NCBI RefSeq assembly: GCF_002854065.1 | Contig: NZ_CP024147.1 | DNA length: 64,000 bases | Source: Escherichia coli | GTDB lineage: Bacteria > Pseudomonadota > Gammaproteobacteria > Enterobacterales > Enterobacteriaceae | Reading direction: 5' to 3' (one strand) | Part shown: piece after piece, positions 2,478-42,036 of the stretch | How the letters are laid out: every line of letters starts with the position of its first letter | Numbering within the stretch: position 1 is the stretch's first letter | Made by a program: the position numbers and the translations under genes | Notes under the pieces: model-generated | What the model was told of the DNA's origin: nothing | What the model saw: only the letters and a program-made list of their open reading frames with translations | Database searches by the model: none

Positions 2478-2510
2478 TAAAAAAACCCGCGCAATGGCGC
2501 GGGTTTTTTG
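2478..2510 (-). terminator. leu attenuator hairpin (GC stem flanked by A-run and T-run)
   Basis: Plus-strand sequence aaaaaaacccgcgcaatggcgcgggtttttt between the leuL stop and the leuA start; stem cccgcgc/gcgcggg, U-tract on the reverse-strand transcript. Confidence 0.75.
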
Positions 2511-2527
2511 TTTGACTGCGTGCTGGC

Positions 2528-2614
2528 TTAATGCTGGATGCCGCTCACTCGTCTACCGCGCAAAGAAGATGCGTTTAGTAGTAGTAGACCGATAAAGCGA
2601 ACGATGTGAGTCAT
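2528..2614 (-). CDS. leuL: leu operon leader peptide (28 aa)
   Basis: [28 protein letters not shown] is the C-terminal 28 aa of the 63-aa track ORF 2528..2719; four consecutive CTA Leu codons (plus strand tagtagtagtag at 2576-2587). Confidence 0.88.
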
Positions 2615-3271
2615 TAAATCAGCTCCAGATGAATGCGATATGCTTTTAGAGTTACTGGATACAAAAACGGATGTCAACCCTGACGCAATAAAAACGTCCC
2701 GCCAGCATGAGTTCTGCATCCGTAAAATTAGCTAATTGTGCTGCTGTGGTTAAAACAAGCGATATTAATTTCTGCTTAACTACCGACGCTTTTCATCGGT
2801 TGACATATTTCAGAATAAATTTTTGCATCTAATCCACGAGGAAAAAGGGGACAAAATGCACGCGTTGCAAAACCTATCCTGATGATTTGTATTGAATTAT
2901 ATGTTTTGCGGATTTTTTGATATTGATTTGGTGAATATTATTGATCAATTAATGTTAAGAATTAATGCATTAAACATATAAATAAATTATTAAAAAGCAC
3001 ATTTAATCCATTTTGTGGATGATTGAGTATTCGCGGTAGTTATGATTAGATTGTTTTCGCAACAAAAACATTATGGATTATTATGCTGTGGTGAGTGACG
3101 CTTTCCACGGCAATGGATTCTGTTTTTATAAGAACCCGTATCTTTATGTTTTCCTAATTTTACTCATTTTCCTTTTTCTTATTTTATATGCATGATAAAT
3201 CATATTCTCGAGGATTATTTCTCTGCATTCCAATAAGGGAAAGGGAGTTAAGTGTGACAGTGGAGTTAAGT

Positions 3272-22058: not shown

Positions 22059-22889
22059 ATGTCGCAGGCTGCTCTGAACACGCGAAATAGCGAAGAAGAG
22101 GTTTCTTCTCGCCGCAATAATGGAACGCGTCTGGCGGGGATCCTTTTCCTGCTGACCGTTTTAACGACAGTGTTGGTGAGCGGCTGGGTCGTGTTGGGCT
22201 GGATGGAAGATGCGCAACGCCTGCCGCTCTCAAAGCTGGTGTTGACCGGTGAACGGCATTACACGCGTAATGACGATATCCGGCAGTCGATCCTGGCATT
22301 GGGTGAGCCAGGTACCTTTATGACCCAGGATGTCAACATCATCCAGACGCAAATAGAACAACGCCTGCCGTGGATTAAGCAGGTGAGCGTCAGAAAGCAG
22401 TGGCCTGATGAATTGAAGATTCATCTGGTTGAATATGTGCCGATTGCGCGGTGGAATGATCAACATATGGTAGACGCGGAAGGAAACACCTTCAGCGTGC
22501 CGCCAGATCGCACCAGCAAGCAGGTGCTTCCAATGCTGTATGGCCCGGAAGGCAGCGCCAATGAAGTGTTGCAGGGCTATCGCGAAATGGGGCAGATGCT
22601 GGCAAAGGACAGATTTACTCTGAAGGAAGCGGCGATGACCGCGCGGCGTTCCTGGCAGTTGACGCTGAATAACGATATTAAGCTCAATCTTGGCCGGGGC
22701 GATACGATGAAACGTTTGGCTCGCTTTGTAGAACTTTATCCGGTTTTACAGCAGCAGGCGCAAACCGATGGCAAACGGATTAGCTACGTTGATTTGCGTT
22801 ATGACTCTGGAGCGGCAGTAGGCTGGGCGCCATTGCCGCCAGAGGAATCTACTCAGCAACAAAATCAGGCACAGGCAGAACAACAATGA
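22059..22889 (+). CDS. ftsQ: cell division protein FtsQ
   Basis: 276-aa [38 protein letters not shown]...; starts 1 nt after the ddlB stop. Confidence 0.95.
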
Positions 22890-24148
22890 TCAAGGCGACG
22901 GACAGAAAACTGGTAGTAGGACTGGAGATTGGTACCGCGAAGGTTGCCGCTTTAGTAGGGGAAGTTCTGCCCGACGGTATGGTCAATATCATTGGCGTGG
23001 GCAGCTGCCCGTCGCGTGGTATGGATAAAGGCGGGGTGAACGACCTCGAATCCGTGGTCAAGTGCGTACAACGTGCCATTGACCAGGCTGAATTGATGGC
23101 AGATTGTCAGATCTCTTCGGTATATCTGGCGCTTTCTGGTAAGCACATCAGCTGCCAGAATGAAATTGGTATGGTGCCTATTTCTGAAGAAGAAGTAACG
23201 CAAGAAGATGTGGAAAACGTCGTCCATACCGCGAAATCGGTGCGTGTGCGCGATGAGCATCGTGTACTGCATGTGATCCCGCAAGAGTATGCGATTGACT
23301 ATCAGGAAGGGATCAAGAATCCGGTAGGACTTTCGGGCGTCCGGATGCAGGCAAAAGTGCACCTGATCACATGTCACAACGATATGGCGAAAAACATCGT
23401 CAAAGCGGTTGAACGTTGTGGGCTGAAAGTTGACCAACTGATATTTGCCGGACTGGCATCAAGTTATTCGGTATTGACGGAAGATGAACGTGAACTGGGT
23501 GTCTGCGTCGTCGATATCGGTGGTGGTACAATGGATATCGCCGTTTATACCGGTGGGGCATTGCGCCACACTAAGGTAATTCCTTATGCTGGCAATGTCG
23601 TGACCAGTGATATCGCTTACGCCTTTGGCACGCCGCCAAGCGACGCCGAAGCGATTAAAGTTCGCCACGGTTGTGCGCTGGGTTCCATCGTTGGAAAAGA
23701 TGAGAGCGTGGAAGTGCCGAGCGTAGGCGGTCGTCCGCCGCGGAGTCTGCAACGTCAGACCCTGGCAGAGGTGATCGAGCCGCGCTATACCGAGCTGCTC
23801 AACCTGGTCAACGAAGAGATATTGCAATTGCAGGAAAAGCTTCGCCAACAAGGGGTTAAACATCACCTGGCGGCAGGCATTGTATTAACCGGTGGCGCAG
23901 CGCAGATCGAAGGTCTTGCAGCCTGTGCTCAGCGCGTGTTTCATACGCAAGTGCGTATCGGCGCGCCGCTGAACATTACCGGTTTAACGGATTATGCTCA
24001 GGAGCCGTATTATTCGACGGCGGTGGGATTGCTTCACTATGGGAAAGAGTCACATCTTAACGGTGAAGCTGAAGTAGAAAAACGTGTTACAGCATCAGTT
24101 GGCTCGTGGATCAAGCGACTCAATAGTTGGCTGCGAAAAGAGTTTTAA
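22886..24148 (+). CDS. ftsA: cell division protein FtsA (actin-like ATPase)
   Basis: 420-aa [34 protein letters not shown]...; 4-nt overlap with ftsQ. Confidence 0.97.
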
Positions 24149-24208
24149 TTTTTATGAGGCCGACGATGATTACGGCCTCAGGCGACAGGCACAAATCGGA
24201 GAGAAACT

Positions 24209-25360
24209 ATGTTTGAACCAATGGAACTTACCAATGACGCGGTGATTAAAGTCATCGGCGTCGGCGGCGGCGGCGGTAATGCTGTTGAACACATGGTGCG
24301 CGAGCGCATTGAAGGTGTTGAATTCTTCGCGGTAAATACCGATGCACAAGCGCTGCGTAAAACAGCGGTTGGACAGACGATTCAAATCGGTAGCGGTATC
24401 ACCAAAGGACTGGGCGCAGGCGCTAATCCAGAAGTTGGCCGCAATGCGGCTGATGAGGATCGCGATGCACTGCGTGCGGCGCTGGAAGGTGCAGACATGG
24501 TCTTTATTGCTGCGGGTATGGGTGGTGGTACCGGTACAGGTGCAGCACCAGTCGTCGCTGAAGTGGCAAAAGATTTGGGTATCCTGACCGTTGCTGTCGT
24601 CACTAAGCCTTTCAACTTTGAAGGCAAGAAGCGTATGGCATTCGCGGAGCAGGGGATCACTGAACTGTCCAAGCATGTGGACTCTCTGATCACTATCCCG
24701 AACGACAAACTGCTGAAAGTTCTGGGCCGCGGTATCTCCCTGCTGGATGCGTTTGGCGCAGCGAACGATGTACTGAAAGGCGCTGTGCAAGGTATCGCTG
24801 AACTGATTACTCGTCCGGGTTTGATGAACGTGGACTTTGCAGACGTACGCACCGTAATGTCTGAAATGGGCTACGCAATGATGGGTTCTGGCGTGGCGAG
24901 CGGTGAAGACCGTGCGGAAGAAGCTGCTGAAATGGCTATCTCTTCTCCGCTGCTGGAAGATATCGACCTGTCTGGCGCACGCGGCGTGCTGGTTAACATC
25001 ACAGCGGGCTTCGACCTGCGTCTGGATGAGTTCGAAACGGTAGGTAACACCATCCGTGCATTTGCTTCCGACAACGCGACCGTGGTTATCGGTACTTCTC
25101 TTGACCCGGATATGAATGACGAGCTGCGCGTAACTGTTGTTGCGACAGGTATCGGCATGGACAAACGTCCTGAAATCACTCTGGTGACCAATAAGCAGGT
25201 TCAGCAGCCAGTGATGGATCGCTACCAGCAGCACGGGATGGCTCCGCTGACCCAGGAGCAGAAGCCGATTGCTAAAGTCGTGAATGACAATGCGCCGCAA
25301 ACTGCGAAAGAGCCGGATTATCTGGATATTCCAGCATTCCTGCGTAAGCAAGCTGATTAA
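24209..25360 (+). CDS. ftsZ: cell division GTPase FtsZ (tubulin homologue)
   Basis: 383-aa [32 protein letters not shown]... with the GGGTGTG tubulin signature. Confidence 0.98.
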
Positions 25361-27182: not shown

Positions 27183-29888
27183 ATGCTAATCAAATTATTA
27201 ACTAAAGTTTTCGGTAGTCGTAACGATCGCACCCTGCGCCGGATGCGCAAAGTGGTCAACATCATCAATGCCATGGAACCGGAGATGGAAAAACTCTCCG
27301 ACGAAGAACTGAAAGGGAAAACCGCAGAGTTTCGTGCGCGTCTGGAAAAAGGCGAAGTGCTGGAAAATCTGATCCCGGAAGCTTTCGCCGTGGTGCGTGA
27401 GGCAAGTAAGCGCGTCTTTGGCATGCGTCACTTCGACGTACAGCTGCTCGGCGGTATGGTTCTTAACGAACGCTGCATCGCCGAAATGCGTACCGGTGAA
27501 GGTAAAACCCTGACCGCAACGCTGCCTGCTTACCTGAACGCACTAACCGGTAAAGGCGTGCATGTAGTTACCGTCAACGACTACCTGGCGCAACGTGACG
27601 CCGAAAACAACCGTCCGCTGTTTGAATTCCTTGGCCTGACTGTCGGTATCAACCTGCCGGGCATGCCAGCACCGGCAAAGCGCGAAGCTTACGCAGCTGA
27701 CATCACTTACGGTACGAACAACGAATACGGCTTTGACTACCTGCGCGACAACATGGCGTTCAGCCCTGAAGAACGTGTACAGCGTAAACTGCACTATGCG
27801 TTGGTGGACGAAGTGGACTCCATCCTGATCGATGAAGCGCGTACACCGCTGATCATTTCCGGCCCGGCAGAAGACAGCTCGGAAATGTATAAACGCGTGA
27901 ATAAAATTATTCCGCACCTGATCCGTCAGGAAAAAGAAGACTCCGAAACCTTCCAGGGTGAAGGCCACTTCTCGGTGGATGAAAAATCTCGCCAGGTGAA
28001 CCTGACCGAACGTGGTCTGGTGCTGATTGAAGAACTGCTGGTGAAAGAGGGCATCATGGATGAAGGGGAGTCTCTGTACTCTCCGGCCAACATCATGCTG
28101 ATGCATCACGTAACGGCGGCGCTGCGCGCTCATGCGCTGTTTACCCGTGACGTCGACTACATCGTTAAAGATGGTGAAGTTATCATCGTTGACGAACACA
28201 CCGGTCGTACCATGCAGGGCCGTCGCTGGTCCGATGGTCTGCACCAGGCTGTGGAAGCGAAAGAAGGTGTGCAGATCCAGAACGAAAACCAAACGCTGGC
28301 TTCGATCACCTTCCAGAACTACTTCCGTCTGTATGAAAAACTGGCGGGGATGACCGGTACTGCTGATACCGAAGCTTTCGAATTTAGCTCCATCTACAAA
28401 CTGGATACCGTCGTTGTTCCGACCAACCGTCCAATGATTCGTAAAGATTTGCCGGACCTGGTCTACATGACTGAAGCGGAAAAAATTCAGGCGATCATTG
28501 AAGATATCAAAGAACGTACTGCGAAAGGCCAGCCGGTGCTGGTGGGTACTATCTCCATCGAAAAATCGGAGCTGGTGTCAAACGAACTGACCAAAGCCGG
28601 TATTAAGCACAATGTCCTGAACGCCAAATTCCACGCCAACGAAGCGGCGATTGTTGCTCAGGCAGGTTATCCGGCTGCGGTGACTATCGCGACCAACATG
28701 GCGGGTCGTGGTACAGATATTGTGCTCGGTGGTAGCTGGCAGGCAGAAGTTGCCGCGCTGGAAAATCCGACCGCAGAGCAAATTGAAAAAATTAAAGCCG
28801 ACTGGCAGGTACGTCACGATGCGGTACTGGCAGCAGGTGGCCTGCATATCATCGGTACCGAGCGTCACGAATCCCGTCGTATCGATAACCAGTTGCGTGG
28901 TCGTTCTGGTCGTCAGGGGGATGCTGGTTCTTCCCGTTTCTACCTGTCGATGGAAGATGCGCTGATGCGTATTTTTGCTTCCGACCGAGTATCCGGCATG
29001 ATGCGTAAACTGGGTATGAAGCCAGGCGAAGCCATTGAACACCCGTGGGTGACCAAAGCGATTGCTAACGCCCAGCGTAAAGTTGAAAGCCGTAACTTCG
29101 ACATTCGTAAGCAACTGCTGGAATATGATGACGTGGCTAACGATCAGCGTCGCGCCATTTACTCCCAGCGTAACGAATTGCTGGATGTTAGCGATGTGAG
29201 CGAAACCATTAACAGCATTCGTGAAGATGTGTTCAAAGCGACCATTGATGCCTACATTCCACCACAGTCGCTGGAAGAAATGTGGGATATTCCGGGGCTG
29301 CAGGAACGTCTGAAGAACGATTTCGACCTCGATTTGCCAATTGCCGAGTGGCTGGATAAAGAACCAGAACTGCATGAAGAGACGCTGCGTGAGCGCATTC
29401 TGGCGCAGTCCATCGAAGTGTATCAGCGTAAAGAAGAAGTGGTTGGTGCTGAGATGATGCGTCACTTCGAGAAAGGCGTCATGCTGCAAACGCTTGACTC
29501 CCTGTGGAAAGAGCACCTGGCAGCGATGGACTATCTGCGTCAGGGTATCCACCTGCGTGGCTATGCACAGAAAGATCCGAAGCAGGAATACAAACGTGAA
29601 TCGTTCTCCATGTTTGCAGCGATGCTGGAGTCGTTGAAATATGAAGTTATCAGTACGCTGAGCAAAGTTCAGGTACGTATGCCTGAAGAGGTTGAGGAGC
29701 TGGAACAACAGCGTCGTATGGAAGCCGAGCGTTTAGCGCAAATGCAGCAGCTTAGCCATCAGGATGACGACTCTGCAGCCGCAGCTGCACTGGCGGCGCA
29801 AACCGGTGAGCGCAAAGTAGGACGTAACGATCCTTGCCCGTGCGGTTCTGGTAAAAAATACAAGCAGTGCCATGGCCGCCTGCAATAA
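27183..29888 (+). CDS. secA: preprotein translocase ATPase SecA
   Basis: 901-aa [46 protein letters not shown]...; C-terminal zinc-binding [14 protein letters not shown]. Confidence 0.98.
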
Positions 29889-29906
29889 AAGCTAACTGTT
29901 GAAGTA

Positions 29907-29936
29907 AAAGGCGCAGGATTCTGCGCCTTTTTTATA
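29907..29936 (+). terminator. candidate rho-independent terminator/attenuator between secA and mutT
   Basis: ggcgcag gattc tgcgcc hairpin followed by ttttttat, 11 nt before the mutT start. Confidence 0.6.

Positions 29937-30334: not shown

Positions 30335-30337
<3 letters not shown>
29948..30337 (+). CDS. mutT: 8-oxo-dGTP diphosphatase (Nudix)
   Basis: 129-aa ORF MKKLQIAVGIIRNENNEIFITRRAADAHMANKLEFPGGKVEMGETPEQAVVRELQEEVGI (Nudix box). Confidence 0.96.
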
Positions 30338-30665
<328 letters not shown>

Positions 30666-41876: not shown

Positions 41877-42036
41877 TGATTTTTCTGGTGAAAATTATCC
41901 AGAAGATGTTGTAAATCAAGCGCATATAAAAGCGCGGCAACTAAACGTAGAACCTGTCTTATTGAGCTTTCCGGCGAGAGTTCAATGGGACAGGTTCCAG
42001 AAAACTCAACGTTATTAGATAGATAAGGAATAACCC

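Follow-up and report, generated by a model that had tools for sequence, protein, structure and literature searches.

Normal division of E. coli depends on the balance between FtsZ and FtsA, and RNase E processing at the junction of the two genes is one accepted way of setting that balance. The short spacer at this junction contains an inverted repeat, which raises the questions of whether the repeat is a maintained RNA structure, on which strand it would act and what it might contribute to the ftsZ message. The original prediction, made from the sequence of the window (the whole 64,000-nt stretch of E. coli DNA analyzed here, from contig NZ_CP024147.1), had proposed either an RNA processing or stability element for ftsZ mRNA or a relation to the antisense transcription reported for this junction.

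Results

The ftsA-ftsZ spacer holds a hairpin upstream of the ribosome-binding site

According to the open reading frame list, the window covers the distal part of the dcw cluster (murC, ddlB, ftsQ, ftsA, ftsZ, lpxC, secM and secA). The ftsA-ftsZ spacer, from the stop codon TAA to the ATG at 24209, is exactly 60 nt long (24149-24208), as had been predicted. Of 5426 complete E. coli genomes, 5424 contain the 401 nt around it at 99% identity or more, and RefSeq names ftsA and ftsZ there. The features of the junction are as follows.

22886-24148, + strand: ftsA coding sequence, stop codon TAA at 24146-24148 (open reading frame list and RefSeq annotation of the identical E. coli sequence)
24143-24154, + strand: A/U tract TTTTAATTTTTA / UUUUAAUUUUUA, single-stranded, spanning the ftsA stop codon and preceding the stem (from the sequence)
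24155-24162, + strand: 5' arm of the hairpin, TGAGGCCG (folding, inverted-repeat search and covariation)
24163-24172, + strand: hairpin loop, ACGATGATTA, 10 nt, varying in sequence and length between species
24173-24180, + strand: 3' arm of the hairpin, CGGCCTCA (folding, inverted-repeat search and covariation)
24181-24197, + strand: conserved unpaired block GGCGACAGGCACAAATC (alignment conservation), including 24189, the equivalent of the second RNase E-dependent 5' end of Salmonella
24198-24203 and 24209-24211, + strand: Shine-Dalgarno sequence GGAGAG and ATG of ftsZ, neither within the stem (from the sequence)
24209-25360, + strand: ftsZ coding sequence (open reading frame list, RefSeq annotation and FtsZ protein scan)

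The repeat gaggcc/ggcctc, first described with 6-nt arms (24156-24161 and 24174-24179), proved to be longer and consists of 8 perfect base pairs closing a 10-nt loop. The stem ends 17 nt before GGAGAG and 28 nt before the ftsZ ATG, near enough to the distance of about 25 nt given earlier, and the A/T run said to precede it was found as TTTTAATTTTTA at 24143-24154.

Folding of the 60-nt spacer RNA gave -15.4 kcal/mol, compared with -9.45 ± 2.34 kcal/mol in dinucleotide shuffles (z = -2.54), and 3 of 200 shuffled spacers folded equally well. The predicted probability of stem formation was 0.98-0.99 in every transcript context and with every 5' end tried. Throughout the window, perfect 8-bp inverted repeats with loops of 3-12 nt gave 37 matches versus about 12 in shuffles, a count that scores nested registers of one hairpin separately and corresponds to about 20 separate places. 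Such a repeat would be met in roughly 1 of 100 preselected 60-nt intervals, which is unlikely but not extraordinary, and the E. coli hairpin taken alone is only modestly beyond chance. It is raised above chance by the conservation of its pairing across species.

Pairing is conserved across Enterobacterales while the arms change

Species-representative genomes were scanned for FtsZ, and the spacer from the ftsA stop codon to the ftsZ start was extracted from each of the 80 loci obtained (76 from Enterobacterales and 4 from Vibrionaceae). In nearly every enterobacterial family, a stem-loop was present 7-14 nt past the ftsA stop codon with differing arm sequences. The arms read GAGGCCG/CGGCCTC in Escherichia, GAGACCG/CGGTCTC and GAGAGCGC/GCGCTCTC in many Enterobacteriaceae, and GAGATCAT/ATGATCTC and GGGGATCAT/ATGATCTCC in Yersiniaceae, Erwiniaceae and Pectobacteriaceae. 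They were CGGGATC/GATCCCG in Rahnella, CGGAGCC/GGCTCCG in Acerihabitans, GAGGCT/AGCCTC in Photorhabdus and GAAGC/GCTTC in Providencia. Hairpins in Budvicia and Morganella were different and weak, and the inspected spacers of Plesiomonas (39 nt) and Vibrionaceae (33 nt) were without the stem. The tract before the stem was 7-14 nt long in all lineages, with a mean A/U content of 88%.

Covariation was analyzed in a MAFFT alignment of the 59 distinct Enterobacterales spacers. Unguided RNAalifold analysis of this set recovered the same 7-pair core, and all seven core pairs showed changes on both sides with the pairing kept. Standard pairs filled 95.9% of the core cells, compared with 27-48% when the 3' partner was slid by 1-3 columns. 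The covariation score of the core was 0.534 versus 0.06-0.16 for the slid partners, and none of 500 shuffles reached it, a statistic that overstates the significance because the 59 spacers are related by descent. Two results are independent of this kinship problem, namely the slid-partner control and the number of distinct core stems, which was 29 among the 59 spacers, 19 of them fully paired. In a longer alignment, from the last 60 nt of ftsA to position +21 of ftsZ, the hairpin was the sole helix with substantial compensatory change. On this comparative evidence, the stem is a genuine, evolutionarily maintained RNA structure.

The GGAGAG Shine-Dalgarno sequence was invariant across the alignment of the 59 distinct Enterobacterales spacers. 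The unpaired block GGCGACAGGCACAAA(A/T)CGGAGAGAAACT (24181-24208) was better conserved across Enterobacterales than the hairpin arms, and its part beside the start codon is reported in the literature as the site of action of the small RNAs DicF and DinR.

Longer spacers of 114-115 nt, lying upstream of locus position 2001, were seen in Pseudocitrobacter (L005 and L006), Pseudescherichia vulneris (L018) and Escherichia sp. ESNIH1 (L022). In them, an insertion of about 52 nt separates the conserved CAGGCGACAGGCAC block from the ribosome-binding site; the insertion folds as a second stem-loop, and the first hairpin stays beside the ftsA stop codon.

Wobble pairs favor selection of the stem in the sense mRNA

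A stem made of Watson-Crick pairs forms on both strands and in DNA, unlike one with G.U pairs, so the distribution of wobble pairs can indicate the strand under selection. Among the 59 spacers, the sense-strand core contained 27 G.U cells versus 7 A.C cells. The sense hairpin was the more stable in 45 of the 59 sequences, with a mean of -11.0 kcal/mol versus -9.1 kcal/mol for the antisense one. In E. coli itself, the stem is fully Watson-Crick and the two strands are nearly equal (-13.9 versus -14.4 kcal/mol). Variation within Escherichia over the 116 nt around the spacer comprised only two loop positions and C24160T; the latter, the sole stem polymorphism, replaces a C-G pair by U.G in the sense RNA and would leave an A.C mismatch in the antisense RNA. 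Taken together, these comparisons favor selection of the stem in the sense ftsA-ftsZ mRNA rather than in an antisense RNA or in DNA. A DNA palindrome or operator was rejected, as complementarity and not sequence is conserved and the G.U pairs are asymmetric between the strands.

RNase E-dependent 5' ends bracket the stem in Salmonella

Cleavage at this junction was assessed with the TIER-seq data of Salmonella SL1344 (Chao et al., 2017, Table S1), in which ftsA occupies 154363-155625 and ftsZ starts at 155686. The four sites below are given with reads in two wild-type replicates versus two rne-ts replicates, and their window positions are carried over from Salmonella.

Site 155625, AAGAGTTTTA-A-TTTTTATGAG: WT 23/15 versus rne-ts 0/2; equivalent to window position 24148
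Site 155626, AGAGTTTTAA-T-TTTTATGAGG: WT 104/85 versus rne-ts 27/17, adjusted p 0.0027; equivalent to 24149
Site 155666, CAGGCGACAG-G-CAC: WT 33/17 versus rne-ts 2/2; equivalent to 24189
Site 155698, in codon 5 of ftsZ, GTTTGAACCT-A-TGGAAC: WT 219/141 versus rne-ts 5/4; equivalent to 24221

The 5' ends thus bracket the stem in Salmonella, lying 6-7 nt upstream of it (at the ftsA stop codon and the first spacer base) and 9 nt downstream. The printed flanks, which at sites 155625 and 155626 are 21 nt long, are identical to the window and suggest the same stem geometry. By analogy, the same positions would be cut in E. coli, where 24148, 24149 and 24189 are carried over from the Salmonella sites. 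The upstream site, AA↓UUU within UUUUAA↓UUUUU (24143-24153), matches perfectly the RNase E consensus RN↓WUU of the same TIER-seq study, with U at +2. This motif was found in the pre-stem tract of 59 of 59 spacers, a weakly informative count that is nearly guaranteed at 88% A/U. The downstream site at 155666 is weaker than 155626 (33/17 versus 104/85 reads) and is without a U at +2. With 22,033 RNase E sites in the Salmonella genome (Chao et al., 2017), sites near any hairpin are unsurprising because they are so frequent.

No RNase E-dependent 5' end around the Salmonella junction is stronger than the one equivalent to 24221, which lies inside ftsZ; a cut there would inactivate the ftsZ message.

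According to an account that cites Cam et al. (1996), most ftsZ mRNAs, from whichever promoter, are processed by RNase E near the translation start at sites E1 and E3, and secondary literature credits this processing with a higher level of FtsZ relative to FtsA. In Clarke et al. (2014), ftsA and ftsZ are mentioned neither in the main text nor in the supplements. Processing in E. coli (E1 and E3 in Cam et al., 1996; Tamura et al., 2006) concerns the same locus and the same enzyme as the sites considered here, whereas the cross-species covariation evidence stems from the present analysis.

A proposed role of the stem-loop as the core of an intercistronic processing site

The reading that we prefer, with a probability of roughly 0.55, is that the hairpin is an autonomous stem-loop of the sense mRNA and the structured core of the intercistronic ftsA-ftsZ RNase E processing site. 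On transcripts reading through from ftsA, RNase E would cut the single-stranded A/U tract at the stop codon (UUUUAA↓UUUUUA), 6-7 nt before the stem, and would cut less frequently in the unpaired block 9 nt past it. The stem would hold both flanks single-stranded and in fixed register, and may thereby direct or limit the cleavage. It would stay on the processed ftsZ message as a 5'-proximal structure and may stabilize this downstream product. The ftsZ part, once split from the ftsA part, would be free to decay and be translated independently, which would help to set a high FtsZ:FtsA ratio. In this form, the RNA processing or stability role of the original prediction is consistent with the conserved sense structure, with the Salmonella 5' ends on either side of it (6-7 nt before and 9 nt after) and with the literature on ftsZ processing; the contribution of the stem itself is what we infer.

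Intercistronic hairpins beside A/U-rich RNase E sites are also found in papBA, the puf operon, malEFG (REP) and rpsU-dnaG-rpoD, operons whose products are likewise required in very different amounts. For those operons there are measurements of how the hairpin affects half-life, whereas for the ftsA-ftsZ stem we infer such an effect. The REP and puf barriers also have a stable 3' end, unlike the ftsA-ftsZ stem, for which none is reported. A second point of comparison is the ompA 5' UTR, said to have been described by Emory, Bouvet and Belasco in 1992, which reportedly is a 5'-terminal stem-loop stabilizer. The likeness is that the ftsZ stem would be the first structure of its message after the upstream cut; the difference is that stabilizers of the ompA type require the stem at the 5' end or within very few nucleotides of it, compared with 6-7 unpaired nt for ftsZ. 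For 5'-end-dependent attack by RNase E, 6-7 unpaired nt suffice for recognition. Classic protection by 5'-terminal pairing is therefore doubtful, because this number of unpaired nucleotides precedes the stem in a message starting at 24148 or 24149.

A stronger version, tentative and rather unlikely in our judgment, would make the hairpin an order-wide, dedicated cis-element that sets FtsZ:FtsA by positioning RNase E or a partner (for example, Hfq on the U-rich tract and the stem) and that retunes division; the piece of about 40 nt released between the two cuts could also persist as a stable by-product and have its own role.

The ftsA codons UGGCUG (24128-24135) can pair with CAGGCA of the spacer (24183-24191), with 92.5% of the cells paired in the 59 sequences, and such a helix would close around both the hairpin and the upstream RNase E site. 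Covariation cannot judge this helix because both of its sides are conserved.

A terminator or a barrier to 3' exonucleases as rival readings

A G+C-rich stem straight after a stop codon resembles an intrinsic terminator. This reading was rejected for either strand, in view of the missing U-tract, scan match and mapped 3' end. The stem is followed by GGCGACAGG and not by a U-tract, the T-run preceding it instead. A terminator scan of both strands, with a loop range of 3-8 nt outside which the 10-nt loop falls, gave no terminator-like site at the hairpin. The supplementary E. coli 3'-end data of Adams et al. (2021) list none at K-12 positions 105240-105299; the nearest mapped ends are at 104642 inside ftsA and 106673 inside lpxC, with none between.

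The same data bear on the main rival reading, in which the hairpin, after a cut at about 24189, would shield the ftsQ-ftsA fragment from 3'-to-5' exonucleases and so stabilize the ftsA rather than the ftsZ mRNA. The Salmonella 5' end 9 nt past the stem would supply such a cut, and where a lineage has the 52-nt insertion in front of the ribosome-binding site, the hairpin is still found by the ftsA stop codon. G+C-rich stems, such as the REP element in malEFG and the puf hairpins, are classical exonuclease barriers, and the stem at the junction is likewise G+C-rich. Against this stand the same 105240-105299 interval, empty of 3' ends, and the downstream cut, which has the fewer reads and no U at +2. 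Moreover, stabilization of ftsA would oppose the high FtsZ:FtsA ratio ascribed to processing. The barrier is weakened above all by the absence of a reported 3' end, and we consider it unlikely.

Possible effects on translation

Several translational roles of the stem were examined. Sequestering or insulation of the ribosome-binding site was rejected, as the stem ends 17 nt before GGAGAG and the predicted energy needed to open the Shine-Dalgarno/AUG region changed by no more than 1 kcal/mol when the stem was mutated or deleted or when the transcript started at 24149 or 24189. Long-range helices joining the 3' codons of ftsA to the spacer or to the ribosome-binding site, among them the Rfam structure considered below, were rejected as well; they are conserved with almost no change on both sides (covariation 0.111).

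The stem could also act as a translational insulator, where its position 6 nt past the ftsA stop codon would block sliding or re-initiation of ribosomes or would set the effect of ftsA translation on ftsZ initiation. The tie to the stop codon, with a pre-stem tract of 7-14 nt in all lineages, is consistent with this. Given the size of the ribosome footprint, a ribosome pausing on the ftsA stop codon would sit directly against the stem base. The location of the Shine-Dalgarno sequence and AUG outside the stem, the opening energy of the ribosome-binding site, predicted to shift by at most 1 kcal/mol, and the lack of a long-range helix at the ribosome-binding site with compensatory change argue the other way, making an insulator quite improbable.

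GAGG (24156-24159) and the ATG at 24166 in the loop open a frame of 16 codons, whose TGA (24214-24216) overlaps the ftsZ start. This small reading frame is probably due to chance, the ATG being lost in E. coli N96 and L068 (ATA), in E. albertii (GTG) and in Citrobacter.

Possible absence of function

The structure might lack a function and represent a neutral remnant, such as that of a terminator that once followed ftsA, preserved through common ancestry and chance. The stem base GAG...CUC is indeed mostly common by descent, Budvicia and Morganella have weak hairpins, and Plesiomonas, Vibrionaceae and some endosymbionts manage without the stem. Chance and ancestry would hardly be expected to keep pairing in 29 different core stems, with both-side changes at 7 of 7 core pairs, while the loop sequence drifts freely and the pairing persists. 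We give this explanation little credence.

The antisense RNA StfZ crosses the hairpin

The second role proposed originally, a relation to antisense transcription, was examined with the published map of StfZ (Anand et al., 2022, PMC9628754; see also Dewar and Donachie, 1993). The StfZ isoforms start at +9, +117 or +195 and all end 357 nt upstream of the ftsZ ATG (PMC9628754), which places them in the window at 23852-24217, 23852-24325 and 23852-24403; the computed lengths match the published 366, 474 and 552 nt.

23852-24403, - strand: span of the antisense RNA StfZ, by arithmetic from Anand et al. (2022, PMC9628754), overlapping the hairpin and not defined by it

The hairpin (24155-24180) falls inside this mapped transcript on the opposite strand. 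With the 3' end of StfZ about 300 nt farther on, the hairpin is not the StfZ terminator. The StfZ loops highlighted by Anand et al. pair with the ribosome-binding site and the AUG and not with this stem (PMC9628754).

The hairpin might nevertheless be an StfZ element, either a stability or recognition stem or the first contact site between sense and antisense RNAs. The isoforms span the entire spacer on the opposite strand, and the E. coli stem would form equally well on either strand (-13.9 versus -14.4 kcal/mol). The cross-species wobble pairs and energies favor the sense strand, as does C24160T with its U.G pair in the sense and A.C mismatch in the antisense RNA; the distant 3' end and the loops pairing elsewhere also speak against an StfZ element, the hairpin being neither a terminator of StfZ nor a highlighted functional loop. 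A functional link to StfZ is thus very improbable. Of the antisense proposal, the overlap stands, as a positional coincidence.

The Rfam match RF02797 is no evidence for a small RNA gene

The spacer also matches an Rfam family named as a small RNA.

24128-24217, + strand: match to RF02797 'PssrA, plasmid-encoded Shigella sRNA A', 105.5 bits versus a gathering score of 69, over the full model length

The match spans the whole spacer together with 7 codons at the end of ftsA and 3 at the beginning of ftsZ, and the model consensus itself reads the end codons of ftsA, the spacer and then ATGTTTGA of ftsZ. In the paper from which the family derives, pssrA maps to about 103842-103931 of plasmid pCP301, with CP0121 on one side and ipaJ on the other, and ipaJ is located at 104066 on pCP301, as that paper implies. 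No match to the PssrA model was obtained in pCP301 103842-103931 (L001 443-532), even at E <= 10, and a BLAST search with the junction sequence showed no Shigella plasmid carrying the ftsA-ftsZ junction. A plasmid origin of the match was rejected, since the matching plasmid records are chromosome-sized or chromosome-derived and carry ftsA and ftsZ. The match is 90 nt long, as is the published plasmid interval, and E. coli chromosomes carry the dcw cluster at about 104-111 kb. The seed of RF02797 was probably taken from the S. flexneri 301 chromosome at the coordinates meant for the plasmid.

The consensus structure of RF02797, in which the 3' arm pairs with ftsA codons, is unlike the supported hairpin, and it has a covariation of 0.111 and one pair that never forms. 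If the junction gave rise to a separate transcript of about 90 nt, as the label suggests, this would agree with a score far above the gathering score. This reading is very improbable, given that the consensus is merely ftsA 3' codons, spacer and ftsZ start, that the naming plasmid locus fails the model and no Shigella plasmid has the sequence, that promoter-like and terminator-like sites are missing at the borders of the match, that Adams et al. (2021) map no 3' end there and that covariation backs the Rfam structure poorly. The match is not evidence for a small RNA gene, because the family is apparently mis-seeded.

Other Rfam matches above gathering in the window are naRNA4/CssrE (REP-type) in three tandem copies downstream of secA, STnc40 at the 3' end of secA, tp2 and the leucine operon leader; the coordinates listed for them are 30337-30646 (+), 29864-29933 (+), 41921-42034 (-) and 2479-2628 (-).

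Discussion

RNase E processing of the ftsA-ftsZ junction and the overlapping antisense RNA are already known, and have been for decades, so the novelty of a further element in this context is low. The modest additions of this analysis are the covariation evidence for the stem, its placement between mapped cleavage sites and the curation problem of RF02797. The latter is worth correcting, as the family otherwise labels every enterobacterial ftsA-ftsZ spacer as a virulence-plasmid small RNA.

A stem maintained by compensatory change beside a cut site is a concrete target. Both of its arms are non-coding, so that it can be disrupted and restored with neither protein touched. If the hairpin were indeed a dedicated cis-element setting FtsZ:FtsA, small changes in the stability of the stem would retune cell division.
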